From contig CAWBKB010000007.1 of assembly GCA_963789265.1 (NCBI GenBank), positions 256,001 through 320,000 of the forward strand: a stretch of DNA of 64,000 nt. The letters run 5' to 3'. A model generated the notes under the pieces. That model was not told the DNA's origin and did not search any database. It saw nothing but the letters and a program-made list of their open reading frames with translations. Both the position numbers and the translations under genes were made by a program. Origin of the DNA: an uncultured delta proteobacterium. Lineage in GTDB: Bacteria > Desulfobacterota > Desulfomonilia > Desulfomonilales > Desulfomonilaceae. Positions within the stretch are counted from its first letter, which is position 1. Each line of letters opens with the position of its first letter. Shown here one piece after another: positions 1,530 to 64,000 of this stretch.

Positions 1530-2171
1530 CTATTCCGCTATGCAGGATAGATATTTCGTAATCAGATGGTCCAGTACTACGTGCACGTCCTCAACAGGAC
1601 CGTATTCACCATTGTCCGTCTCCACATGGATCACATGCCGAGCTATCTGTTTCATCTTCCCGCCGTCAAACCCGACTATGGCAACCGGCACTCCACCGTT
1701 TTGGTCTGCGTACTCGAGCGCTTTGACCGTGTTGGGCGAATTTCCGCTGGCCGAGATCCCTACCACCACGTCGCCGGGCCTCATCAAGTTTCTGAGCTGC
1801 CAATAAAAGATGTTTTCGTAACCTATGTCGTTGGCCAGGCACGTGATGAAAGCACTGTTGGATGTCAAGCTGACGCAGCGGAACGGTTTATGCCCTTCAG
1901 GGGACGCGCCGAACCCGAAATCGTTTGCGAAATGGCACGCCGTGGCCGCGCTGCCGCCGTTCCCGAGGAAAAAGATTGTGCTTCCTTTCGAACGGGCCTC
2001 CAGGAACAGATCGATAACACGTCCGATCGCTGTGCAATCAAGATCGCGCAGGATTCCTATGAGACGCTCCACGTACCCGCGGGCGAACTCAGGGCCGCTC
2101 ACGTTCCGCGAATCGCCTTTCCCCATGCTGGATATGTCCACAGCCTTTCGCGTCATATTACACCTCAACAT
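1530..2171 (-). CDS. gmhA: Phosphoheptose isomerase / SIS-domain sugar isomerase
   Basis: Motifs GNGGSAATACHF, ANDIGYENIF, GISASGNSPN, GFDGG, VEDVH. Confidence 0.85.
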   Translation of the reverse strand: MLRCNMTRKAVDISSMGKGDSRNVSGPEFARGYVERLIGILRDLDCTAIGRVIDLFLEARSKGSTIFFLGNGGSAATACHFANDFGFGASPEGHKPFRCVSLTSNSAFITCLANDIGYENIFYWQLRNLMRPGDVVVGISASGNSPNTVKALEYADQNGGVPVAIVGFDGGKMKQIARHVIHVETDNGEYGPVEDVHVVLDHLITKYLSCIAE

Positions 2172-2256
2172 TTCCGATGCGCCTTTTCAGCCACAGTTCC
2201 CGAGTCCCTTCCGAGTGGAAGAATCTCGCAGCAGTACCCCCATGGCTAGGTAATCG

Positions 2257-2452
2257 TTCACCGCGGAGAACGCAGAGACCGCGGAGAATTCTATTTTCTC
2301 CGAACGCTTATGCGAATTGTGTACAGCAGGTTCCAGTATGTGATCCCACGACGCGGGAAGGACAATGCCGACCTGACTGTACGCGCGGTGATTGACGTTG
2401 AATTGAACAAACTATCCTTTATCTCTGCGTTCTCTGCGGACTCTGCGGTGAA
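2257..2452. repeat. REP-like inverted pair (CACCGCAGAG-type family)
   Basis: TTCACCGCGGAGAACGCAGAGACCGCGGAG at 2257 and an imperfect inverse CTCTGCGTTCTCTGCGGACTCTGCGGTGAA ending at 2452. Confidence 0.65.
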
Positions 2453-2480
2453 TCTTGAGGCCCGCTGAACGGTCACATAG

Positions 2481-4500
2481 CTACTTTACCAATCTCTTTG
2501 CTTGGTTGGCAAAAACCGCTGACCCCAATGCCTTGGTCGGGACGGCCACTGGTCCCAAAGCAGCGGGCTGAACGGAAAAAACAGGATCGTATTCCGGAAC
2601 AATCTCTTTCAGAATGCGGCGTACTTCCGTTTCATCATTACCCGTTCGCACCATTTCCACAGCATTATCTATTTTCGCGATGATCTTGGAGCCCGGGGCG
2701 TCTATTTCGTTGAAAACCTTTATTTTAGCATGTGAGGTCGCGAGGCACTCTTCGCTATCCTGACATATTTCTTCCGACAACTTTTCACCAGGTCTAAGGC
2801 CGATAAATTCTATGGGAATTTCATCTTCTTGCTTTCCCGATAGCTGGAACAACTGGTGTACCAGGTCAACAATTCTGATTGGGTCACCCATATTCAGGAC
2901 CATGATCTGGCCGGACTTTCCAAGAGCGGTAGCTTGCAGTACCAGCGCGACCGCTTCCGGAATGGTCATGAAGTATCTGCGCATATCCGGATGGGTAATA
3001 GTAACAGGTCCTCCCCGGGCGATCTGGTCCATAAATATCGGGACCACGCTACCTTCGGAGGCAAGGACGTTTCCAAACCTCACTGATAGGAAGCGCGTGC
3101 GGCTTACGCGGCCAAATGCCTGACAGTAAATCTCACATACTCTCTTGGTTGCGCCCATGACGCTGATGGGATTAACGGCTTTGTCTGTCGATATCAACAA
3201 GAAGCGCGAGACGCCGAATTGATCCGAAGCCCTGGCCAGCGTCTGGACTCCTTCAACATTGTTCTTGAAGCACTCCACTGCATTGAGTTCCTGCATGGGA
3301 ACGTGCTTGTAGGCCGCGGCATGGAATACCAGGTCCGGACGTAACTTTTCAAATTCATTGTCAATTCTAGCCCGGTCCCTCACGTCGCACAACAGCGGGA
3401 TTACCACGCTGTCCGGAGCAAATTCCAGGAGCCGCCTGTGCACGAAAAATAAACTATTTTCGGAACGTTCCACTAATATAAGGCTCTTCGGCCTTCGTTT
3501 CAGGACCTGACGGCAGAGTTCGGACCCGATGCTCCCCCCCGCGCCTGTAACGAGAACAACTTTGCCCGCGATAAGGTTTCTGAACCTGCTCAGTATCTAT
3601 TTTGACTTCCTCGCGTCCAAGCAGGTCTGAGAGGGTGATATCCCTGAGCTGAGTCAGGGTTGATGATTCGGCTATGATTTCCACTAGAGAGGGCAAAGTC
3701 TTGACTGTTAAGTTTAAGTTCTTCAGAGTGTTATAAATGCGCTTCATCTGGGCGCGATTTGCAGAAGGAATGGCCACAATTACCAATTGGACCGGATTAT
3801 CCCGAATGTAATCCGGAATGTCTTCCACCTTGCCCTTTACTCTAATACCGTGAATCGTTAACCGCTGCTTTTTCGGATCGTCGTCGAAAATTGCCTCCAC
3901 TTGGAACTGCGACTCCGGATTTCGAATAATTTCACGAACGATCATCTCGCCGGCATCGCCTGCTCCGACCACCACCGCCCGCCGCCGCGTGCTGTTCGAA
4001 TCCCCGCGGCGGACATAGAGTCGAGCCCGCTCACGGAGAAGCCTCATGCCTACGCGGGCCCCACCGATCAGTACGGTGCTCGTGAAGAAGTCTATGAGAA
4101 TCACCCCTCTAGGAATTCGCAGATATTCCCGGATCATGGGCAACAAGAACAGCGCCAGGGCGCATATAAGGCCGTGCAGCAATAATGTCGGGATATCGCT
4201 CAGTCCCACATAGCGCCAGTTGGTGGAATGCGCTTTCAAAACATAAAAGAAGAATATCTTCAAAAAAACTACGTACGGTAATAGGAGCAAGCGCTGGTGA
4301 AAAAATTTGAACGGAACCCGAAAATCAAAGCGGAATTCGTAAGAAAACCAAAAGCTGATCGCAGCAAGAAGAACGATTATGGCGAAGAGCAAATGATTGA
4401 AATGAACGTACCGTCCTACAAAGCTCAAAGCCTTTTCGGCCTGTTTCAGGAGTCGATTTGTTGTAGACGGATTGTCCGGAACCGGCATCACAGATCTCAA
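2481..4500 (-). pseudogene. CapD/WbpM-type nucleoside-diphosphate sugar dehydratase split by a +1 frameshift (probably a sequencing error)
   Basis: ORFs 3454..4500 (TM helices, GAGDAG, DLLGRE) and 2481..3473 (HAAAYKHVP, STDKAVNP, MGATKR, RFGNVL). Removing one base of the run at 3577-3579 restores QNLIAGKVVLVTGAGGSIG. Confidence 0.85.
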
Positions 4501-4751
4501 ATTTGAAAGGAACCTCCCGGCGGGATCGGCTCAATAGCAGCTCAGCAAAGCCTACTCGACAAATTATGAACCGGTCGAACTGCAAAAGCAAGCCGCGTTT
4601 AACAACCGTTTTCTGCTCTCCGACTTGCTAATAATCTTGATAGCCCTAGAGTTCAAGAGTGCTTGATCATTTCTTTGCGGACAAGTAATCCTGTTATCGG
4701 CAGAATCATCGCAAGACAAGGACCAACCTTCGGCATCACGGAGCACATGAA

Positions 4752-5912
4752 TTGAACCAATTCGACTTTGAATCTCCGGCTGAAGATTCACCCGGTTTCA
4801 CCAAACTCGGCCCGGCTTCCAACGAAACCCTATCGGGTGTCGTCCGTCGGCTCGTAGCGGATTTAAGTACGGATCGACCTGTCGGTCCGGATCGTTGCAG
4901 CGATTGGACTACTCATCATATCTCAACGGCCTTGTCCCAAGGCATCGGCCCGTGGCTGTACAGGGCTCTTGAGGACCATCCCGAGGTTGAACTGGCGCCA
5001 GATTTCCGTGAGAGGCTCAGCCAGGCATACGCGCAATCCATGATTCACAGCCTTTCGAACCAAGCGTGTTTTCGAGAAGTTGTTGCCTTTTTTGCGAGGG
5101 AACAGATACCTGTGTTGGCCCTCAAGGGGGTCTATCTCGGGACTTTTGTTTACAGAAACCCTGCTCTCAGGCCGATGTGCGATCTGGATTTGTTGGTACG
5201 CGAGGAACATTTTGCTCAGGCGAGGAAGCTCTTGGACAAGCTGGGATTCGGGATCGGCGCGGAGCCGCTACAAGGGGCGTACAGTAAATTGCAGCCCGCA
5301 CTGGCTTATATTCGGCCGGGAACGATTCCGTGCGCAGTGGATCTTCACAGCGCACTTTTATCAATGGATTACTACAGCTTCCCTTCTTCGCTCGTTTGGC
5401 AAGACGCGGTGGAGGGCCAACTTTATGGGCAGCCTGTATTCTTCCTGTCAAACGAGCTTAATTTTATCCATCTGGGAATCCATACGCTGACCCACCTCAA
5501 TCTGATACGTGACTGGCTCGATCTGATTCTTTTTTTGCGCCGTATTACCCTTGACTGGGACAGGCTGGCCTCGTTAGCGGGATCGCTTGGCGTCTTGAGG
5601 CCGTTGTATTGGGTTTTTCGCGACCTTAATGAAAAATGGGGGGTCCTGGCACCGAAGCGGTTTGTCGGTTCACTCGCCGCTTATGTCCCGGCACGCATGG
5701 AAGACCGGGTAATCCGGCACAGATTCAGGTACATCTGGCGAATAGTGGCTAGACTCCGACTCCTCCCTAGTTGGGAACTTCGACTACGGTATTTGCGTAT
5801 GAGGATATTCTCTCCGGCCGGTCAAGGGGACCAAGCGTTGGGGCTGCGAGGGCGCCTAATGTTCGTATTATCTAAAGTGAACTTGCTGGTGGCCTTTTTC
5901 CGGCGGCGCTGA
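4752..5912 (+). CDS. Nucleotidyltransferase (NTP_transf_5-like), lasso-cluster-associated type
   Basis: LALKG...Y.NPALRPMCDLDLLV, VDLH and RDWLDL motifs; converges on the lasso operon. Confidence 0.8.
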   Translation: MNQFDFESPAEDSPGFTKLGPASNETLSGVVRRLVADLSTDRPVGPDRCSDWTTHHISTALSQGIGPWLYRALEDHPEVELAPDFRERLSQAYAQSMIHSLSNQACFREVVAFFAREQIPVLALKGVYLGTFVYRNPALRPMCDLDLLVREEHFAQARKLLDKLGFGIGAEPLQGAYSKLQPALAYIRPGTIPCAVDLHSALLSMDYYSFPSSLVWQDAVEGQLYGQPVFFLSNELNFIHLGIHTLTHLNLIRDWLDLILFLRRITLDWDRLASLAGSLGVLRPLYWVFRDLNEKWGVLAPKRFVGSLAAYVPARMEDRVIRHRFRYIWRIVARLRLLPSWELRLRYLRMRIFSPAGQGDQALGLRGRLMFVLSKVNLLVAFFRRR

Positions 5913-5924
5913 TTTGGAGCTTCG

Positions 5925-5986
5925 TAGTGGGACAGGCTTCCAGCCTGTCATTTTGTTGATAGACAGGCAAGATGCCTGTCCCACTA
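5925..5986. repeat. REP-like palindrome (GTGGGACAGGC family)
   Basis: TAGTGGGACAGGCTTCCAGCCTGTC...GACAGGCAAGATGCCTGTCCCACTA between convergent genes; same family as 11185..11237. Confidence 0.75.
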
Positions 5987-6059
5987 ATACAATGGCATAG
6001 GATCAGCGTTTGTTGATCTCGATCTAACGACGCTTTTCCTGAATTATGAATTGGACCTC

Positions 6060-7865
6060 TCAGCTTGCCGTCTTTTCCAACAGGCCGCGACTCTTGAACT
6101 TGTCCTTAAACACTTCCGGCAGCCTCACGGCCTGCACTTCTTTGGTGCCGTGTTTCTTGAACAACACCTGACAACCGGCATGTTCTCTTATTTTTGGTAT
6201 AAATTTGAAGCGACTTGCCTTAGCCTCACTAATGAATCCAAGCACGTCGTGAGAGAATTCCTCCACAAGCATTTGCCGGTCCACGGTTTCGGCGGTGCCG
6301 GCTGCATGCCAGGTCAAATCGAATTTTATGAAGTCGTGGATCGGGTGGTCTTCGAAGCCCAGGTCGTTCACCACTTGCCTGACGAAGACAGAAATAGCGG
6401 CCAAAGAGTGCGAGTCGCCCAAGTGGTTGAAGATGTTGTCGGATGGAAGCTCCAAATCGACTATCCGTTCAAGAAGACTATCCGGATATCCCAATTGCGC
6501 GTCTCTCAATAGCAAGAAAGCCGTGTAACGCATGTGCAACAGGTTGAGCATTAGATACGTGACCCGGACGAAAAGCTCTCTGTCAAGATGCTCAGGAACG
6601 TAATGATAAAGCGTTGAAAACACCTGAGGGTACTTCTTTATAAACTCCATATCCACCGGAGTGGATGGGTAAACGGAGAAATCCGATAGATGTTGGTCTA
6701 TGGCAAGGGAGTGCCCGTACTGCTCGTACAATGGGCTCCCTGGAAAAGGCACGAGCAGGCGGAGATGCAAGGCGGCTTCGTCCCTATCTCCGGAGAAATA
6801 TATCTCGAGCATAAGACTCATAGTTTGGGCTACATCCTCGATCCGTTCCCGAGGAAAGCCCACGATAAATCCGCACGTGGCCAAGATGCCCAGTTCGCAG
6901 GCTTTGCGGACGATTTCGGGCGCGCGATTCAGCTTCAACTTCTTATTCACGATCTTCTGCATTCGGGGCGAGCCTGTTTCGATGCCGAAGAATATTTCAT
7001 CGCACCCTGCCTCGGCCATTTTAGAGAGCACTTCGTCGTCCACAGTGTCGACTCTTGAGAAACAGCTCCACGGTCTGCAAAGATTTTCTTCTACCAGGGC
7101 ATCGCATAGGTCGAGCAGCCACCTGCGATTCAGCGTCAAGAGATCATGCTCGAACCTAAGCTTCTTGGCTCCGAAATCGGCAACGATCTTCTTCACTATT
7201 TTGATTACGTTTTCCACAGACCTTTGGCGAAATCTTCCTTCAGCCATTTTGTTGGAAACACAATAGGAACATCTGAACGGACATCCACGACCCACGTCGA
7301 TGGGAATGTATTCCATCAACCCCATGGAGGGAAACAGACTGTAGTCGGGCAGAGGAAGAGTGTTCAAATCTCGTACAGGAGAGGCGTCGGGAGTTCTCAC
7401 TATCTTTCCGGCGTGACGCAATGTCAGTCCCGGGACCGACAGCAGGGCTTCCGGGTCGTCAAGCGATGCGATAATTCTGCCAATCGTATGATCGCATTCT
7501 CCTCGAACTACAACATCTACTTGTGGGAACACTTCTATGGTTTCCCTGTCTGTGTTGGAGGCCTGAACCCCTCCGAAGAGGATCTTGACGTTGGGTCTTT
7601 GTTCCTTAACAATTCCTGCGAATTTGACCAGGTCGAAATAGAAATTGCACCATGCGGAAAAGCCAACCACATCGGGGCCACGTGAAATAATCGTGCCAGG
7701 GACATCGGAAAAAGTTGGGTTTGAGCTTATGGCGTTTATATCAAGGATCTCGACGCCAAAACCGTCTTTGTGTAGCACTGTCGCCAGAGAAAGAAGGCCC
7801 AAGGGAACGTACGGCTCCGGACCTTTTTCTTTCAAAATAGGATTTGGAATGAGGAGAATCTTCAT
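6060..7865 (-). CDS. Cobalamin-binding radical SAM protein (class B methyltransferase-like)
   Basis: B12-binding N-domain (PLGLLSLA, DVVGFS, GGVQAS, VVRGECD), GRGCPFRCSYC, FGIETGS; its ATG overlaps the kinase-frame stop at 7862. Confidence 0.9.
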   Translation of the reverse strand: MKILLIPNPILKEKGPEPYVPLGLLSLATVLHKDGFGVEILDINAISSNPTFSDVPGTIISRGPDVVGFSAWCNFYFDLVKFAGIVKEQRPNVKILFGGVQASNTDRETIEVFPQVDVVVRGECDHTIGRIIASLDDPEALLSVPGLTLRHAGKIVRTPDASPVRDLNTLPLPDYSLFPSMGLMEYIPIDVGRGCPFRCSYCVSNKMAEGRFRQRSVENVIKIVKKIVADFGAKKLRFEHDLLTLNRRWLLDLCDALVEENLCRPWSCFSRVDTVDDEVLSKMAEAGCDEIFFGIETGSPRMQKIVNKKLKLNRAPEIVRKACELGILATCGFIVGFPRERIEDVAQTMSLMLEIYFSGDRDEAALHLRLLVPFPGSPLYEQYGHSLAIDQHLSDFSVYPSTPVDMEFIKKYPQVFSTLYHYVPEHLDRELFVRVTYLMLNLLHMRYTAFLLLRDAQLGYPDSLLERIVDLELPSDNIFNHLGDSHSLAAISVFVRQVVNDLGFEDHPIHDFIKFDLTWHAAGTAETVDRQMLVEEFSHDVLGFISEAKASRFKFIPKIREHAGCQVLFKKHGTKEVQAVRLPEVFKDKFKSRGLLEKTAS

Positions 7866-57436: not shown

Positions 57437-59031
57437 GTAACCATTCACTTACGCGCGGCACGGGCAAGGCAGACCAATTCATTGGGTCCTGAAGCTCCCG
57501 TGAATAATCATTGAAGCTGCGCCTTGAGAGGGTCGAATCAAGGGGGATTGGATCGGGAAAACAAGACCGCAGAGGGATCTGCTTTCGGATTGCGGGCCAG
57601 GAGGTCGAGAGCTTCCCTGATTCGGCCCGCCACGTCTGCGCCTCTTTTATGGATGGTAGCCGCGACGGTGGCCAAGGTGCTTCTCACCTTGGCTCTCGCA
57701 TCGGTGACCGAGCCAAAGCTGACCTTCCGGGCAATCACCGATGGCCTCAGGTCTCTTTCGGCCAAGTTATTGTCCGCTGGTACCGCACGATGGTCCACCC
57801 AATGAAAGAGACGATGCTCATTTTCCCGGAATATGTCCTGGATGCGGCGAATCCCCTGGTGCCGTGCGGGCTGTGCCATAGTGGTCTTGATCTCGTCACG
57901 CAGTGCAGCCGCCCGGCGATAGAACTCATCATCAGAAATCGGTTGTGTACCAAGTCTCATGGCCAATGACAATTGGGGAGCCGCGACGGCTACAAAGGTC
58001 GATACTTCTTTGTTATCTGGGAACTCCTTCTCCAAATCTTCCACTTTCCGCAACAGATGAGCAAAACAGTACCTGAATCCGGCACGGCGCTTTGTTGTAG
58101 CCCGCATAGCGGTCGACAACGAGAGTCCCCGGGATGAAATGCTTGCCGAAGATTGCTTGGGGAACCTTGGACGAGCGGTTCTTTCCGAACCGAAAAATGC
58201 TTAGATCCGGAGTCGCAAATAGCCACACGTACCCATTCTTCCCGTCAGTCCGCCAACCCGTCTTGTCTGCATGCTTTACCGGAGCCTGTCGATACTCCTC
58301 GATCAGTCTGTCGGTTACCCCTTCAAAGAGATCGGCGCTCTTCCGAAAGAGTTTCGCAAGGCTGCCGGGCCCAATGTCCAGATACTCACAGACCCTCCCC
58401 ATTGGCATACCGTGGAGGTAGTGCATTTCCACCGCATCTGCGATGAATTGGTTACCGTAAAGGCTCTTAGGAAGCACTCCGGGGAGCTGAGGAGTGACAT
58501 TGCGACGGCAATGAGGACAATACCGTTTGGCTACCCGAAACGTGATCTTTTCCGCCTTGTGCCGAGGAGTATCTATCACGCTGCGCTCCGCCCACCCCTT
58601 CTTCTCCAAAGGAGCCCCGCACTCCAGACACAGCTCGCTGTCGGTATCCACATCCACCGTACGGTCGGCGCTGCCATTGTCATGGCTCTTGCGACCAACC
58701 CCTTTGTGACCCCCCGGCCTGGCACCTTTGGGCTTGCGCTCCTTCGCCTCCGTGCTAGGTTTGATCGGCCGCTTGGACGACGGGGTGGACGATCCGAAGA
58801 AGCCGTCTTGCTCTCTCCGCGCGTGATAGCGTAGCTTGGCCCGAAGCTGCTCGATCTCCTCTTTCAGCTCATCAATAAGACGCTGCTTCTGAAGGCAAAA
58901 TGCGCAGCCGTTGACCGCCATGGCGCACATCCTCGATCAATAATTGGCGCCATCTCTATACAACCTTCCCGATCCGAACGCGAGAAAAATCCCTCCCGCT
59001 ATCCTTCTCCCCCACAAGAGTGAATCCTTAC
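57437..59031 (-). mobile_element. IS66-family insertion sequence (single-ORF, ISBst12-like)
   Basis: Ends GTAAGGATTCAC / GTAACCATTCAC enclosing an IS66 transposase. Confidence 0.75.
57538..58930 (-). pseudogene. IS66 transposase, +1 frameshift near 58072
   Basis: SSTPSS, GARPGGHKG, Zn ribbon, ADKTGW, VDRYAGY, YCFAHLLR, NNLAERDLRPSV..RKVSFG; extra G in CAG G TAC. Confidence 0.85.
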
Positions 59032-59241: not shown

Positions 59242-60096
59242 TTAAAATCCGAAAAGACTTCTGGCGTTTCCATCGAAGACGGCTTCTTGCTCTGCTTGAT
59301 CGTAACCAGCCTTCACTAGGAGATTCTCGATTTTTGAGAATTCGGTACCATGAACGAACCAGGGCCAGTCAGTCCCGAAGAGAATGTGTGAAGAGCCGTG
59401 AATTCGCAATAGCTCGACAAACTGCTCCTCTTTAAGCGTGTGAGCGGCGTTTGAGGTGTCCAGATATAGATTCGAATCGGGAGGCAAATTTTTGCGAATT
59501 TCATCAAAATCAGCAAGCAGCCCTCCCATGTGAGCACCGATAAAATTAATGCCCTGATGCCGATTAATCAATTGTGAGAGTTTGAACGGCGTAGTGAGAA
59601 AATTGGGGTTTGCGTCAAGATAAGTGTCCGCCCGAGCAAATGTGTCAAAGACCGCTACCGGCCGTATGTTTCGAGTTTGGGCTAATCGCCCCACTTCGGT
59701 CAACATGACTTCGACTTCCGGCGAGGACAAGTCGAATTTTTGGGAAAAGCTGGAAAACTTGAACCCGGTGATCCCCAGGTCAAAGATGCGTGAGATTTCA
59801 TGGGAAAGACCTTTCATCATCGGATGTAGAGTGGCAAGCGTCCGAAGCCGAGGCAACACTCTCGTGAATCCGATGAATCGGTCATTCTCGCGACGTATTC
59901 GGTCCGGTCCGGTAGAGGGAAGCAACAGACAGACTTCAAACCCATTTTCTTCCGCCGATTGCTCCAAGGCAACGGGTTCAAGTCGCTTCAACGCATCCCA
60001 CACATTCAGGTGTAATTGTTCCACTAGAGGCGGCCTGGCCTTCATATTGTCCACAATCCGGGTTGTGAAGATATGGCAGTGTGAATCAATCGGCAT
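59242..60096 (-). CDS. Amidohydrolase family protein (Amidohydro_2)
   Basis: IDSHCH, GAHMGG, YLDTS, LFGTDWP, GNARSL. Confidence 0.85.
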   Translation of the reverse strand: MPIDSHCHIFTTRIVDNMKARPPLVEQLHLNVWDALKRLEPVALEQSAEENGFEVCLLLPSTGPDRIRRENDRFIGFTRVLPRLRTLATLHPMMKGLSHEISRIFDLGITGFKFSSFSQKFDLSSPEVEVMLTEVGRLAQTRNIRPVAVFDTFARADTYLDANPNFLTTPFKLSQLINRHQGINFIGAHMGGLLADFDEIRKNLPPDSNLYLDTSNAAHTLKEEQFVELLRIHGSSHILFGTDWPWFVHGTEFSKIENLLVKAGYDQAEQEAVFDGNARSLFGF

Positions 60097-60197
60097 CGAG
60101 GTGGTTCCATTCTGGTTGCTCGATCAAGATACCGGCAGGCCAACACAGTACCATAAGCGACCTGCCTCCGGATATGTACCACTCGTCGAACTAGCTT

Positions 60198-60399
60198 ATT
60201 CCGGGGACACCATACTTAATTTATTGCCCGTCTCCGGAAGATGGGCGCATGCGCCGATGCCATGAGCGGTCCGCGGGTGAGCCTTGAGGGATTGCGACGC
60301 TGGCCGAACATTAGGGAGAGCGTCCGGTGTGATACACCGAAAATGAATGCCTGACCCTAAGCCGCAAAGCGAAAAAATTAAGTATGGTGTCCCCAGAAT
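60198..60399. mobile_element. MITE-like element with 20-bp perfect terminal inverted repeats
   Basis: GGGGACACCATACTTAATTT (60203..60222) and AAATTAAGTATGGTGTCCCC (60375..60394). Confidence 0.65.
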
Positions 60400-60439
60400 T
60401 CGATGGAAGGACCTTTGAGAAGCAGTGTCTCAGCAGCCT

Positions 60440-61561
60440 TCAGGGCAAGTTTTTGGTACTTTTCAAGATGCTTTCTATTGCAGCGAAGACCCGTTTATAG
60501 GTTTCACAGTACGGATCCTTATGATGGGGGCTTTCTTGAGCACTCATTGCTCTAACAGGGCAACCACCCGCACATAGAGCAAAATATTCACAGTTCAAGC
60601 AGTCCGCGTCTCTGACAAGGTTGGATATCCTACCGGCCAACTCCAGCCGGTTCGATGACCGAAAGATCTCATCCAGGCCCTCGCAGTCCAACACGTTCCC
60701 AAAATTCTTCTCAGGATACGAACTGACCCAGCAATCGCATTGCCCGACATCGCCGCTCGGATCTATGCAGAAGAAACCATTCACGCAATTGGAACTGAAA
60801 AAACAGGGTACACGCGAACCAAACCCTGTGCTCATTCGTTCGATGATCGACCTAAATGGGGCGATGTTTACACCGGAATCGCGCGACAGGCAGACATCCA
60901 ACAGTCCGACAAGAAAGTCGCCCAATTGATCAGCGTCTAGCAGCAAATCGCCTAGAAAACAGGCGGCAGGCCCTCCAGGGAAAGGTGTATTTACCTGAAA
61001 ATGTGTCAGTCCCACCTCCTCCATGAAATACCGGTAGAATTCCGAAGGGGGCCTGGCTAGGCTTTCGCGGTTGGGAACCGTGATGACCGATACCTCGATA
61101 CCTTTGGACGACGCCTGCTCGTAATTCCTTTTCCAGAGTTCGTTATATCGATTGCCGCTGAGATCTCGGTACCGCCTGTATACGTTGGGGTAGTCCAAGG
61201 AAGACCCGACAAAGCCCCCGAAGAGCTGAAAAATGACCTCATGCCACTGTGAAGTATAATTCATCAGATTGGTCTGCAGGTAGTGAACCACATCAAGGTC
61301 GTGTTCCGCCATGACGCGGCTTATCAGTTCACCGGCTCGTACACACCACCCTGGCGATAGAACCGTGACTTCTCCTCCCTGCCAATAGACTTCGACGTTT
61401 TTCACCCCGCATCCTGCAAGGTACGTGGAGATGCGAGTGAAAATTAGAGATAGATCTTCCAGCGACATCCTGCCGGGTCTTTTGGTTTCGAAACAATATG
61501 AGCACTGGGCATTACACTCGTAGGTGGGGAGAAATATGATAGAAACTTGAGGCCCGAACAT
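60440..61561 (-). CDS. Radical SAM/SPASM maturase
   Basis: CNAQCSYC, WQGGE, LQTN, SPASM CFFSSNC...C...CLNCEYFALCAGGCP...YC. Confidence 0.9.
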   Translation of the reverse strand: MFGPQVSIIFLPTYECNAQCSYCFETKRPGRMSLEDLSLIFTRISTYLAGCGVKNVEVYWQGGEVTVLSPGWCVRAGELISRVMAEHDLDVVHYLQTNLMNYTSQWHEVIFQLFGGFVGSSLDYPNVYRRYRDLSGNRYNELWKRNYEQASSKGIEVSVITVPNRESLARPPSEFYRYFMEEVGLTHFQVNTPFPGGPAACFLGDLLLDADQLGDFLVGLLDVCLSRDSGVNIAPFRSIIERMSTGFGSRVPCFFSSNCVNGFFCIDPSGDVGQCDCWVSSYPEKNFGNVLDCEGLDEIFRSSNRLELAGRISNLVRDADCLNCEYFALCAGGCPVRAMSAQESPHHKDPYCETYKRVFAAIESILKSTKNLP

Positions 61562-61564
61562 GGC

Positions 61565-62437
61565 TCAATTATTGTCCTCTTGGGCCCTGCTCAAATCGTT
61601 GGCAAGATTTGCTGCTTCCTCTTTTATTATTTTGAATACATCCAAAAATGGAGAGCATCGAAAACTGCTATCAACGAAACGGAGGTAACCGCCGCAAAGG
61701 TCGAAACTCTCGCACCAGGAACAGGAGGACTCTCCAAGATAGAGGGCTTTTCTCGGATTCTGCAAGAATTCATAGAGTGGCGATTCCACATCCAAGGTAA
61801 GCCTTCCGTCAAATCTGCCAAAAAACTGTTTCGCAAGAGCGAACCTGCCCGAAGCGGAGACATTTCCATTCTCATCAATGTAGAGTATTCGCTCTGGGCT
61901 CTCCGGGTATATATTCACCAGAGGTGAATCGGCCCCCTGAACCCTGGAGACGAGCATTGAATGAAAGAATTCAACAGGAACCTGCAGGTACTTTGAGTGG
62001 AGATAGTAGTCCAGAACAGAGATTAAATCCGCGCAGTCGATTGGCCCATCGAGTCCCAATACGACTGGGACACCGGCAGAAGTGACCATCCTGACTGCGC
62101 CAAACAGGCCCTTGGACGCATCGATCATGACGCCCAAATCAAAGTGTTCTCCCATCCACGTGTGTGTGTAAATCTCCGAGGCGTTCGAAGCGGGTAGCTT
62201 CCAAAGAAGGGGCAGTCCTACGGGCAAGGAACCCAAAGGTGAGACATCCAAACCACCGCCGTGCAACTCCACGCCACACACCCGGTCTCCGAGGGCTTCG
62301 CAGGCGTTTACAAGATCTTCCACATTACTGGATCGAATTACCACCGACTGAAAATCGGCAATACCGGCGAAGTTCGCAGCTAAATTGACCAAGATGCCAT
62401 CATTCACAGTGTAGCAGGCCCATAGCTCGTCTTGCAA
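61565..62437 (-). CDS. Hypothetical protein with a C-terminal half-SPASM Cys motif
   Basis: LYIDENGNVS...CSWCESFDLCGGY...C; no CxxxCxxC; lies between the repeat-protein gene and the rSAM gene. Confidence 0.65.
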   Translation of the reverse strand: MQDELWACYTVNDGILVNLAANFAGIADFQSVVIRSSNVEDLVNACEALGDRVCGVELHGGGLDVSPLGSLPVGLPLLWKLPASNASEIYTHTWMGEHFDLGVMIDASKGLFGAVRMVTSAGVPVVLGLDGPIDCADLISVLDYYLHSKYLQVPVEFFHSMLVSRVQGADSPLVNIYPESPERILYIDENGNVSASGRFALAKQFFGRFDGRLTLDVESPLYEFLQNPRKALYLGESSCSWCESFDLCGGYLRFVDSSFRCSPFLDVFKIIKEEAANLANDLSRAQEDNN

Positions 62438-62446
62438 GCGTGGAAG

Positions 62447-63061
62447 TTAGTTGCCATCCGGAACACCCCCGTTGCCCCAGACCCGACAGTTTCCGCCATT
62501 GCCCCAAACCCTACAGATTCCCCCGTTGCCCCAGACTCGACAAGTGGTGTTGCCCCAGCCTGCTCCCCTATTGGCCCAAGCCCCACCGGCATTGCCCCAC
62601 CCACCACCGGTGTTGCCCCAAGCACGACCGGAATTCGTCCACGCTCGCCCGGAGTTGCTCCATGCGTGGTGATGCTCTCTATGTCTTTCGTGCTCGTGAT
62701 GTTCTTTCTTCGTCTCGTGTTTCTTCCCAGGTTTGTGGTCCTTCTTGTGCTCTTTTTTATGTTCGTGTCCCTTCTTTTGTTCCGCTTTGTGCTGCTTCTT
62801 CGGGTGACCGCCTTTATGCTCGCCGCCTTTCTTGGCCAGGAATTGGGGTGCATCCGCTCCGGTCCCAAGTTCTTGACCTGTCGTTCCGGACCGACTGCCG
62901 AGATCTTCGGGGTTTCGAAGGGCTCCCAAAACCTCGAGCGGTCCCACCGAGACTGCACCGATTACCACGCAGGACCATTTCCCCAAGGCCCTCAGAAACT
63001 CCCGCCTGTGCAGGCTGGACTCATAATCTTCGTCCCTCGGCCGGTCCAATTGATCGCTCAT
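62447..63061 (-). CDS. Putative rSAM-modified precursor with nine W-X-N repeats (204 aa)
   Basis: GGGGGA RBS; RREFL plus a hydrophobic stretch; His/Lys/Glu-rich linker; AWSNSGR AWTNSGR AWGNTGG GWGNAGG AWANRGA GWGNTTCR VWGNGGICR VWGNGGNCR VWGNGG. Confidence 0.8.
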   Translation of the reverse strand: MSDQLDRPRDEDYESSLHRREFLRALGKWSCVVIGAVSVGPLEVLGALRNPEDLGSRSGTTGQELGTGADAPQFLAKKGGEHKGGHPKKQHKAEQKKGHEHKKEHKKDHKPGKKHETKKEHHEHERHREHHHAWSNSGRAWTNSGRAWGNTGGGWGNAGGAWANRGAGWGNTTCRVWGNGGICRVWGNGGNCRVWGNGGVPDGN

Positions 63062-63297
63062 GTTATCCCCCAAAAACGAAGTCACGAGTATCACCCGAAA
63101 TAACCGATACTCACTCATCTTTAAAATCGCGGTCCATCACAGTTGAAGTTGGCATGAATCGAATTTGGAATGCAAGAAAAAAGGATATTCACCAACGAAA
63201 ATTCCAAGAATTTTTAACAACGTGAATTTGGTTTCGTCCAAACGAATAACCGGGCTGGTTGAAATAATATACCAAAATTACGGAGGGAGGACCGGAT

Positions 63298-64000
63298 ATG
63301 AAAGGGCTACCAGCCTATTTTCTTATCATAGCAACAGTTCTTGCTGTTTGTGGCGGAGCCACATGGGCGGCCGGCAAACGAGGGGGCGGAGGACATCATG
63401 CCGGTGGCCGAAAAGCTGTTCGTCATGCCATGCGCCATATACAGAAGCCTAAAGCGGTACTCCGGCAACATCCCCACCGCCGCGCCCTTCGCGTTGCACA
63501 GCATCGGAAAGAAATGGCGCATCACCCTCGCGTTAAGCCTCGAATTGCAAGAGAAGTTCACATGCACCCGAAGGGGATTAACCAGGGCGGACCCGTCCGC
63601 GGATTGCACAGTCCTCACAACACCGTGAAGCCTACCAAACCGGCGAGACTGGCTAGCGTGGCTAAGAATGTTCGAACCCAGTTCACCGCACGCCACAGAC
63701 ACGTATTCACTCCACGTTGGTGGCAAAATCGCTCTATCACCAACGTAACCAATGTCAGGTGGTTTTCTCATTGGTGGGCACATCCCGGTCCTTATTACTG
63801 GTGGAGACGATGCAGTTGGGTCGCGCTAACGGGATGGTTGCCGGGCGTGGTCTGGTCGGCACCGACCATCTACGATTACGGAAGCAACATCTATTATCAA
63901 GATGATGGTGTGTATATTAACAGCATATGGCAGTATTCAGCGGATCAGTACTATCAGCAGGCCCGGACCATCGCTTTGAATGTACCGCAAGGCGTCTCGG
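63298..64000 (+). CDS. Exported Arg/His-rich then Trp/Tyr-rich protein (partial, runs off the window end)
   Basis: Absent from the ORF track because there is no stop. RBS GGAGG; MKGLPAYFLIIATVLAVCGGATWA...HWWAHPGPYYWWRRCSW...YDYGSNIYYQDDGVYIN...ADQYYQQA. Confidence 0.7.
   Translation, partial: MKGLPAYFLIIATVLAVCGGATWAAGKRGGGGHHAGGRKAVRHAMRHIQKPKAVLRQHPHRRALRVAQHRKEMAHHPRVKPRIAREVHMHPKGINQGGPVRGLHSPHNTVKPTKPARLASVAKNVRTQFTARHRHVFTPRWWQNRSITNVTNVRWFSHWWAHPGPYYWWRRCSWVALTGWLPGVVWSAPTIYDYGSNIYYQDDGVYINSIWQYSADQYYQQARTIALNVPQGVS

Follow-up and report, generated by a model that had tools for sequence, protein, structure and literature searches.

OscB is described as joining Trp C7 to the Cβ of an asparagine or aspartate, and XncB as joining Trp C6 to the Cβ of an arginine or asparagine, in both cases from position i to i+2 (PMC11002830). 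In the cyanobacterial triceptide system GrrA/GrrM, which is the same as OscA/OscB (TIGR04260 and TIGR04261), a Gly-rich precursor with repeated W-x-N motifs is encoded next to one radical SAM (rSAM)/SPASM enzyme without an RRE. ChlB of the ChlB/ChlA system (PDB 9GM3, 9GMC) is reported to synthesise triceptides at a YDR motif (PMC11499958), and it was co-crystallised with its own substrate's leader region (PDB 9GM3). DarE is closest in sequence to the anaerobic sulfatase-maturating enzymes (anSMEs) yet forms cyclophanes, the dynobactin enzyme DynA makes a Trp-Asn C-C link, and an anSME-like sequence combined with Trp-based cyclophanes is described for DynA and DarE/DarW alike (PMC10288494). The precursors of the latter systems are short and carry a single core. 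Their clusters encode dedicated transport and protease functions.

Here we describe a cassette of three intact, co-oriented minus-strand ORFs in a 64,000-nucleotide stretch of DNA from an uncultured delta proteobacterium (the window). The ORFs encode a precursor with W-x-N repeats, a middle protein and an rSAM/SPASM enzyme. The three-gene set is a real operon with the following features:

62447..63061, minus strand: precursor gene, ORF of 204 amino acids from the ATG at 63061, stop codon at 62447-62449
62972..63007, minus strand: leader motif RREFLRALGKWS (residues 19-30), followed by the uncharged stretch CVVIGAVSVGPL, from the family-wide leader comparison
62666..62833, minus strand: His/Lys-rich linker (residues 77-132), read from the sequence and unique to the window copy
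62450..62662, minus strand: core with nine W-x-N motifs (residues 134-204), six of them Gly-rich and the last three CRVWGN
61565..62407, minus strand: middle gene, 280 amino acids from the GTG at 62407 (290 from an alternative TTG at 62437)
61655..61723, minus strand: C-x2-C-x5-C-x12-C motif of the middle protein (C229, C232, C238, C251), invariant in 45 of 45 aligned sequences
60440..61561, minus strand: radical SAM/SPASM gene, ORF of 373 amino acids
61493..61516, minus strand: CxxxCxxC radical SAM cluster motif (C16, C20, C23), invariant in 23 of 23 family members
60506..60805, minus strand: SPASM region (C253, C259, C275, C321, C324, C330, C334, C352), cysteines invariant in alignment A1

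The tight packing of the genes, with gaps of 9 and 3 nt as given in the original prediction, is reproduced by the ORFs: the precursor stop lies 9 nt from the TTG and 39 nt from the GTG of the middle gene, whose own stop is 3 nt away from the ATG of the rSAM gene. Homologues and a public gene call (P0121) favour the GTG at 62407. On the coding strand a Shine-Dalgarno-like GGGGGA run stands just before the precursor ATG at 63061; reading from an alternative ATG at 63118 is also open and gives 223 amino acids. A promoter and terminator scan of positions 60000-63400 yielded sites no more frequently than shuffled sequences. The neighbouring genes encode an Amidohydro_2 protein, a broken IS66 transposase, a GntR/FCD regulator and a divergent secreted protein without a Pfam family. 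Their inspection agrees with the earlier statement that no protease or ABC exporter adjoins the cassette.

The ORF and its motif list match the predicted 204-residue protein that ends in nine W-x-N motifs (in order WSN, WTN, WGN, WGN, WAN, WGN, WGN, WGN, WGN). These motifs account for all nine tryptophans in the C-terminal 74 residues, with spacings of 7, 7, 7, 7, 7, 8, 9 and 9, and none of 100,000 composition-preserving shuffles of the same 74 residues gave nine of them (maximum seven). The precursor thus presents the aromatic-x-x core beside an rSAM/SPASM enzyme, here two genes downstream, by which triceptide systems are recognised. The window core mixes two repeat types, Gly-rich and CRVWGN, the latter being shared with the closest relatives (L004, L007, L008 and L078) and with a paralogue in its own genome (L081). 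Across the family, 442 of the 547 tryptophans after the leader sit in W-x-N, with the consensus GG[GA]W[IAV]N[RG] and up to 16 repeats per peptide. The conserved side chains of the repeat are the tryptophan and the asparagine two positions later, and the middle residue varies freely (I, A, V, G, L, S). The resemblance to cyanobacterial Gly-rich W-x-N repeats, pointed out before, reappears as a sub-threshold match of the 204-residue form to the GrrA/OscA1 model TIGR04260 (18.5 bits, cut-off 31). This model is passed by none of 39 family precursors, and seven of these match it below threshold with 16.7-21.7 bits. The sole Pfam match of the His/Lys-rich linker is weak and ZIP-loop-like. From the KWS of the leader to the first W-x-N the window precursor counts 103 residues, compared to a family median of 24 (range 20-59, 71 precursors).

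The window cassette belongs to a bacterial system that is widespread yet unstudied, and is an unusual example of it. The notion of a new, solitary system was not borne out, since the cassette is a single, atypical paralogue within a family that is large and conserved. A relative of the enzyme is encoded in 278 of 317 pattern-matched genome stretches, and all locus counts rest on 80 loci kept from these 278. A homologue of the middle gene lies directly upstream of the rSAM gene in 76 of the 80; in all four others the rSAM gene is at a contig edge. A same-strand ORF with at least three W-x-N motifs is found upstream of the rSAM gene in 70 loci, while seven of the remaining ten have no upstream DNA and three (L018, L021, L029) have it and show no such gene. 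The order of precursor, middle gene and rSAM gene is conserved family-wide. A fourth canonical gene, which had been missed, encodes an exported SnoaL-like protein in 65 of the 80 loci and is absent from the window copy. Hosts include Desulfobacterota, Verrucomicrobiota, Acidobacteriota, Chromatiaceae and others, whereas GrrA/GrrM hosts are cyanobacteria. A search of the open-access literature combining radical SAM, SPASM, SnoaL and precursor peptide gave no match.

The assignment of the third gene to the rSAM/SPASM superfamily holds: the protein carries the CxxxCxxC motif within CNAQCSYC (residues 16-23), a YWQGGEV stretch at residues 59-65 and the eight invariant SPASM cysteines, and it passes the SPASM domain model TIGR04085 (49.2 bits, cut-off 27). 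It falls slightly under the Pfam gathering scores for Radical_SAM (24.5 vs 29.5) and SPASM (18 vs 21.5). Its SPASM cysteines align with the Aux I and Aux II cysteines of anSMEcpe (PDB 4K36-4K39; TIGR03942), to which it aligns full-length (E = 1.8e-13) and which likewise has the complete RS, Aux I and Aux II cysteine sets and no RRE. It is a complete enzyme with all three cluster sites, and every invariant family residue is kept. An RRE-sized N-terminal extension is absent and the top NCBIfam model is anSME, in line with the earlier description of an RRE-less, anSME-like enzyme. Scoring against the GrrM, XyeB, FxsB and anSME models, which had been proposed as a check, left all of them below cut-off: TIGR03942 (anSME) gave 120.9 bits (cut-off 349.45), the GrrM/OscB model TIGR04261 64.5 (310), FxsB 25.3 (370) and XyeB 23.5 (450). 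The same applies to DynA (114.2 bits, cut-off 450), DarE (99.4, 650), DarW (95.5, 650), AmcB (56.1, 425) and YhhB (36.5, 445). By HMM the enzyme is thus not GrrM, XyeB or FxsB, its GrrM/OscB score, far short of the cut-off, lies under its own anSME, DynA and DarE scores, and NCBIfam offers no family for any of the three cassette proteins. TIGR04261 is matched weakly by 22 of 23 family members (best E 4.7e-27). The AF2 model of the enzyme (pLDDT 90.3) superimposes with TM scores of 0.77-0.81 on anSMEcpe (0.77-0.80) and ChlB (0.81, among the two best structural matches), fitting the triceptide synthase as well as anSME. The sequence identity of ChlB to the window proteins is just 11-17%.

The middle protein had been listed as a hypothetical protein with a Cys motif, encoded by an extra partner gene. 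Partner gene and motif stand, but the protein is better described as a degenerate radical SAM/SPASM fold. Neither Pfam nor NCBIfam holds a family for it; its profile finds 617 clusters at 50% identity, and the ESM Atlas returns unnamed 'hypothetical protein' clusters only, including one in which 17% of the members have SPASM. Profile comparison by hhalign relates it to the rSAM family with a probability of 87.9% (E = 3.2e-6). This is further supported by its AF2 model (pLDDT 94.2), for which the best folds are ChlB (Z 14.2, rmsd 3.3 over 251 residues) and anSMEcpe (Z 13.4-13.7), with nearly the whole length aligned. The four cysteines align with C321/C324/C330/C352 of the rSAM enzyme, which in turn align with C317/C320/C326/C348 of anSMEcpe, described as the Aux II ligands of that enzyme (PMC5715301). 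A CxxxCxxC motif is absent from the middle protein, and its sole invariant cysteines across 45 sequences are C229, C232, C238 and C251. On the predicted structure, the middle protein has a radical SAM/SPASM fold, is catalytically dead and keeps only the four Aux II-type cysteines.

The middle module also occurs fused to other enzymes. In L077 it is joined in frame to the window rSAM family, the only such case among the fusions examined. In P0206, P0210 and P0243 it is fused to another Radical_SAM domain, in P0176 it stands behind a third rSAM type, and in P0194 it is fused to DUF483 and a methyltransferase. We also considered that long matches to the middle-protein profile are fusions to the window rSAM type. 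This was rejected, as phmmer with the window rSAM found nothing at E <= 10 in eight longer-than-typical proteins, chosen by eye among the best 150 matches, and what they carry in addition is another rSAM type or methyltransferase/DUF483. The L093 locus pairs this leader and middle module with cores that lack W-x-N. Fusion to varied tailoring enzymes, together with these different cores, fits what one would expect of a recognition module. We tentatively propose, as a possibility that we rate below even, that the middle protein is a new RiPP precursor-recognition element, i.e. a dead paralogue with a single Aux-II-type cluster that would bind the RRxFLxxLGKWS leader and hold the precursor from export until every W-x-N has been stapled by the rSAM enzyme. 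It would then act as RRE substitute and Tat proofreading chaperone, a portable module that evolution has attached to various tailoring enzymes and put to use on various cores. While ChlB was crystallised with its own substrate's leader region, in the window family a separate paralogue may bind the leader.

The twin-arginine, signal-like character of the leader had escaped the original prediction. RRx[FYL][LF] is found within 12 residues before KWS in 69 of 71 family leaders, whose consensus RRxFLxxLGKWS is followed by an uncharged stretch. The window leader has HRREFL and a short uncharged stretch of about 14 residues, with no A-x-A beside the core. Elsewhere in the family an A-x-A lies at most eight residues before the first W-x-N in 48 of 71 precursors, as expected if signal peptidase cleavage releases just the repeats, and 23 of the 71 have no near-core A-x-A. 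Judged by its residues, the N-terminus of the precursor looks like a conserved, signal-like leader resembling a Tat signal. TatC (PF00902, 244.8 bits) is encoded on contig C4 of the same genome, and the NCBIfam Tat-signal models gave no match at E <= 0.01 in the 39 family precursors. Such a leader would explain why no dedicated protease or exporter is present. There is precedent in the bufferins, where signal peptides act as RiPP leaders in place of a classical leader, likewise with no dedicated exporter, and where a partner protein is proposed to recognise or mask the signal until the peptide has been modified (PMC12452194). Bufferins differ in their MNIO enzyme, Cys-based cores, Sec-type signal and DUF2063/RRE-type partner, for which the window family has a dead rSAM protein. 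In the open-access literature, triceptide with twin-arginine gave no match, nor did radical SAM with twin-arginine, RiPP and Trp, and triceptide with signal peptide returned nothing relevant; triceptide papers and their supplements may already list the clade.

By analogy with the characterised systems, we lean towards reading the cassette as an operon for RiPP-like maturation from a widespread, unnamed family that makes triceptide-like Trp-to-Asn cyclophanes, a chemistry that we infer, within a new architecture with an export-signal-like leader and a non-catalytic partner. In the cytoplasm the rSAM enzyme would abstract a hydrogen from the asparagine Cβ of each W-x-N and couple it to the tryptophan indole, giving one three-residue cyclophane per motif and up to nine in the window precursor. 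The middle protein, a putative non-catalytic partner that probably binds one [4Fe-4S] cluster, would recognise the conserved leader and present the core, and it may also shield the export signal until modification is complete. The leader would double as a Tat-type (or general) export signal, so that a dedicated protease and exporter would be dispensable, their work being done by signal peptidase and the general export machinery. Compared to GrrA/GrrM, the precursor falls short of the GrrA/OscA model and has its own twin-arginine, signal-like leader, and a dead-rSAM partner gene is obligatory in the family, which usually has a gene for an exported SnoaL-like protein as well. DynA and DarE/DarW are among the best HMM matches, but the window enzyme scores far under their cut-offs of 450 and 650. 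Their systems are not known to have a dead-rSAM partner or a signal-like leader, and the window family has long repeats where they have a single short core.

The idea that the enzyme is an anSME beside an unrelated W-x-N gene draws on anSME being its best NCBIfam and PDB sequence match and on Sulfatase-domain ORFs within 5 kb in 3 of the 80 loci, one of which (L029) has no W-x-N gene. We rejected it on gene context and HMM cut-offs and regard it as extremely improbable: the score stays far below the anSME cut-off, no sulfatase substrate gene adjoins the window cassette, and the enzyme keeps a conserved partnership with W-x-N precursors and the middle gene (70 and 76 of 80 loci). Closeness to anSME is moreover also reported for cyclophane synthases such as DarE (PMC10288494). 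The neighbour comparison that could have overturned the original prediction thus failed to do so, with W-x-N genes in 70 loci and sulfatases in three. A more serious contender, though one that we consider unlikely, keeps operon and substrate and assumes other rSAM chemistry, with candidates being an ether or C-N link of the kind that DarE and DynA also form, hydroxylation of Asn or Trp, epimerisation or links between neighbouring repeats. The products would then be something other than three-residue Trp-Asn cyclophanes. The clade is distinct by HMM from all characterised cyclophane synthases, the nearest models include DarE and DynA, described as makers of more than one bond type (PMC10288494), and the family member at L093 serves cores without W-x-N, so that the enzyme family is not tied to this motif. 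Against this stand the repeat itself, which conserves Trp and Asn at i+2 around a freely variable residue, and the i to i+2 cyclophanes that OscB and XncB are described to form on W-x-N (PMC11002830). The N-terminus might instead be an uncleaved membrane anchor and the product a membrane-tethered, Gly/Trp-rich (here His/Lys-rich) envelope protein that is modified before insertion. The missing A-x-A in the window copy and in 23 of 71 precursors near the core, the lack of a Tat-signal HMM match and a length of 204 residues with a His/Lys-rich linker, more protein-like than peptide-like, would fit such an anchor. We nevertheless think it improbable given the A-x-A close to the first repeat in 48 of 71 precursors and the near-universal twin-arginine motif.

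A second, fuller five-gene system, which had also gone unnoticed, lies on contig C1 of the same genome and includes the genome's only SnoaL-like gene copy. The window copy is a derived paralogue that has lost the SnoaL-like gene and has a His/Lys-rich linker and mixed repeats. As it lacks this gene and lies beside a broken IS66 transposase, its function may be weaker than that of the C1 copy. Going further, it could be a decaying or accessory paralogue, a duplicated remnant without a product of its own, with the C1 system doing the work. In addition to the missing gene and the adjoining transposase, the 103-residue spacer is unseen in 71 other precursors, and a metagenome scan with the middle protein recovered nine loci, all of the CRVWGN five-gene or canonical type, none with a His/Lys-rich linker and none a close relative of the three-gene form. 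We hold this to be unlikely: all three ORFs are intact, the rSAM enzyme keeps all invariant family residues and the middle protein its four cysteines, all nine tryptophans keep their W-x-N context, and P0122, 60% identical to the middle protein, indicates that the sublineage exists elsewhere.

Cyclophanes of the triceptide and darobactin types supply a rapidly growing number of constrained peptides, among them antibiotics that act on Gram-negative bacteria. The family described here would add a large, phylum-spanning and unnamed enzyme clade, substrates carrying up to 16 repeats, and a dead-enzyme partner that is maybe a new leader-recognition module. It would also add a possible route in which general export machinery replaces a dedicated protease and transporter. 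The window copy adds a His/Lys-rich segment to the precursors of this family.

The three genes of the cassette are all intact and lie on the minus strand in the following arrangement:

62447..63061, minus strand: precursor gene, intact, 204 aa, ATG at 63061
61565..62437, minus strand: middle gene, intact, 290 aa from a TTG
60440..61561, minus strand: rSAM/SPASM enzyme gene, intact, 373 aa

The intergenic gaps of 9 nt and 3 nt agree with the tight, co-oriented packing described in the original prediction; the first widens to 39 nt if the middle gene starts at the GTG at 62407 (280 aa), the start favoured by its homologues and by the public gene call P0121. A GGGGGA run lies ahead of the precursor ATG, and an alternative frame open from 63118 would yield 223 aa. 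The nine W-x-N motifs reported at the precursor end were recovered exactly: all nine tryptophans of its last 74 residues lie in such motifs, at spacings of 7, 7, 7, 7, 7, 8, 9 and 9, and none of 100,000 composition-preserving shuffles of this segment gave nine. Scored against TIGR04260, the GrrA/OscA1 precursor model, the repeat region is sub-threshold (17.7-18.5 bits vs 31).

The enzyme carries CNAQCSYC at residues 16-23 and a complete SPASM cysteine set. Its top NCBIfam scores are with anSME (120.9 bits, cut-off 349), DynA (114.2, cut-off 450) and TIGR04083 (113.2), followed by DarE (99.4 bits) and DarW (95.5 bits), while the GrrM/OscB model gives 64.5 bits, under its cut-off of 310, and the scores with XyeB, FxsB and YhhB are below even that. 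Among the NCBIfam models, the enzyme passes the cut-off of one, that of the generic SPASM domain. Residues 4-360 align end to end with residues 2-356 of anSMEcpe, leaving no room for an N-terminal RRE, in line with the earlier claim that this domain is absent. The AlphaFold model of the enzyme (pLDDT 90.3) gives equally good fits to anSMEcpe, with TM 0.77-0.80, and to ChlB, a triceptide synthase, with TM 0.81. According to PMC10288494, an anSME-like sequence is normal for cyclophane-forming enzymes of the DarE/dynobactin type, and the dynobactin maturase, among the nearest named relatives of the enzyme, makes a Trp-Asn link.

Pfam and NCBIfam hold no family for the middle protein. Across 45 aligned homologues only P144, C229, C232, C238 and C251 are invariant, and CxxxCxxC is absent from all of them. 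Profile-profile comparison places middle residues 69-280 on residues 168-373 of the enzyme family (probability 87.9%, E 3.2e-6), pairing C229/C232/C238/C251 with enzyme C321/C324/C330/C352, which in turn align with C317/C320/C326/C348 of anSMEcpe, the ligands of its Aux II cluster (PMC5715301). The AlphaFold model of the middle protein is confident (pLDDT 94.2). In structural comparison it comes closest to full-length rSAM/SPASM enzymes, with ChlB (Z 14.2, rmsd 3.3 Å) aligned over 251 residues across model residues 4-271 and anSMEcpe (Z 13.4-13.7) over 260 residues. From the cysteine mapping, the missing CxxxCxxC and these structural matches, the middle protein is predicted to be a dead rSAM/SPASM paralogue, in which the whole fold is kept, the SAM-cleaving cluster site is lost and one auxiliary-type four-Cys site is retained.

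A profile of 23 enzyme homologues recovered 278 relatives among 317 pattern-matched stretches of one-genome-per-species contigs; the best 80 of the 278 loci were kept. Judged by record title, their hosts include Desulfobacterota, Verrucomicrobiota, Acidobacteriota, Chromatiaceae, Accumulibacter, Geobacter and others. In 76 of these best 80 loci a middle-protein homologue lies directly upstream of the enzyme, and in the remaining four (L001, L003, L026, L073) the enzyme sits at a contig edge. In 70 of the best 80, an upstream ORF on the same strand contains three or more W-x-N motifs; in seven of the other ten there is little or no DNA upstream, and three (L018, L021, L029) have upstream DNA and no recognisable precursor. 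Just upstream of the precursor, 65 of the best 80 loci encode an exported SnoaL_3/DUF4440 protein, the fourth gene of the usual cassette. The next commonest neighbour families occur in 13 loci each at most, and no recurrent protease or ABC exporter family is present among the neighbours of the best 80. With sequences clustered at 50% identity, the middle-protein profile matches 617 clusters at E ≤ 0.001, of which 389 reach ≤ 1e-10 and 184 reach ≤ 1e-30. Around the genome of the window, itself included, the protein occurs in 17 of 41 genomes (genus, 6 of 6 others; family, 15 of 24; neighbouring family, 1 of 16).

The 70 loci with a W-x-N gene provided 73 precursor ORFs for comparison, 71 of them leader-bearing. 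Their N-termini share a layout of an acidic start, [DSN]RRxFLxx[LM]GKWS and some 20 uncharged residues in a row, often with A-x-A immediately before the first repeat. RRx[FYL][LF] is found in 69 of the 71 leader-bearing ORFs and A-x-A within 8 residues of the first W-x-N in 48 of them, and 442 of the 547 post-leader tryptophans of the family precursors lie in W-x-N, with the consensus GG[GA]-W-[IAV]-N-[RG]. As judged from sequence, this layout matches twin-arginine signal peptides, and cleavage of such a signal would free the repeat peptide and nothing else. The genome of the window encodes TatC. The Tat reading is plausible yet not established, since none of 39 family precursors matched a Tat-signal HMM. 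A Bacterium UASB14 scaffold (L011 2300-4196) has four precursor genes in tandem, each with 3 to 10 W-x-N, ahead of one middle gene and one enzyme. The highest repeat count seen, 16 W-x-N of the W[SH]NK type after a long poly-Gly run, is found at L042 3223-3933 and L095 2450-3160.

The middle module also occurs as a portable part. At L077 4182-6176 the module and the enzyme of the family form one in-frame fusion, seen in one MAG and possibly due to an assembly error. Eight longer-than-typical proteins, picked by eye from the best 150 representatives, were checked for further fusions. The module is joined N-terminally to a different Radical_SAM domain in P0206, P0210 and P0243, C-terminally behind yet another rSAM in P0176, to DUF483 plus a methyltransferase in P0194 and to DUF483 in P0229; P0141 and P0155 have extra N-terminal residues without a Pfam family. 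The module is joined to at least four different partners, namely the family enzyme, another Radical_SAM type, an N-terminal third rSAM type and DUF483 with a methyltransferase. Within the same genus, another genome (L093, about 2051-7743, minus strand) carries a tandem pair of precursors with the same RREFFNGLGKWS leader and with cores that contain no W-x-N. Beside them are a family enzyme and an open frame of 1226 residues in which a radical SAM domain and the middle module are joined to a tail resembling DUF483/methyltransferase. A constant leader and middle module combined with variable cores and catalytic domains is expected if the middle module recognises the leader, and we infer from these arrangements that it may do so, a role that RRE domains have in other RiPP pathways.

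Three observations count against a W-x-N-crosslinking family. The enzyme of L093 stands beside cores of another kind, no curated NCBIfam family cut-off is reached by the enzyme or the precursors, and Sulfatase-domain ORFs lie less than 5 kb from the family enzyme in three of the best 80 of 278 loci:

L029 459-2288: Sulfatase-domain ORF, at a locus with no W-x-N gene nearby
L035 2254-3756: Sulfatase-domain ORF
L020 460-1062: Sulfatase-domain ORF

We found nothing on this architecture in the open-access literature searched. The feature originally singled out is real, and its original interpretation holds in part: by analogy with the characterised enzymes it is probably of the triceptide/cyclophane kind, with a new architecture, and not a wholly new system. 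The cassette belongs, as an atypical copy, to a widespread family that has no name.

A second, paralogous system with more genes is present on another contig of the same genome:

Contig C1, 527000-538000 (L081, 3600-8835), minus strand: second system

It encodes an exported SnoaL_3 protein and a precursor with CRVWGN repeats, together with a further rSAM/SPASM paralogue of 362 aa. Its middle gene is 45% identical to that of the window cassette, and its enzyme, 57% identical, forms a 691-aa protein with a third rSAM domain. The closest relatives (L004, L007, L008, L078, L084-L087) likewise have the five-gene form. The window copy has three genes only and lacks the SnoaL-like gene, and its core combines six Gly-rich repeats with three of the CRVWGN type. 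Further features of this copy and its surroundings are:

62666-62833, minus strand: His/Lys-rich precursor segment, 56 residues, KKGGEHKGGHPKK...HHEHERHREHHH
57538-58930, minus strand: broken IS66-family transposase, split into overlapping frames of 305 aa and 193 aa, some 1.5 kb downstream of the cassette
63298-64000, continuing to position 2357 of L082, plus strand: divergent 352-aa gene, signal-like N-terminus

The His/Lys-rich segment looks like a metal-binding stretch and was not found in the other family precursors examined; because of it, 103 residues separate leader and first repeat, compared with 20-59 across the family. An amidohydrolase gene and the broken transposase flank the cassette. 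The divergent 352-aa protein belongs to no Pfam family and contains a basic region rich in His and Arg as well as a segment rich in Trp and Tyr. All reading frames and invariant residues of the window copy are intact. This copy could be a functional, specialised variant or a duplicate in decay.

In the mechanism we propose, the enzyme would act in the cytoplasm and join Trp to Asn by one C-C bond in each W-x-N. PMC11002830 describes two enzymes that act on this motif: OscB joins C7 of Trp to C-beta of Asn/Asp, and XncB joins C6 of Trp to C-beta of Arg/Asn. The middle protein would bind the leader and perhaps shield it. The leader would then direct export and be cleaved by general machinery, which would account for the missing protease and transporter. 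Bufferins, with signal peptides as leaders and a partner proposed to mask them, provide a precedent (PMC12452194). The main points of interest of the family are the predicted dead-enzyme partner and the signal-like leader.
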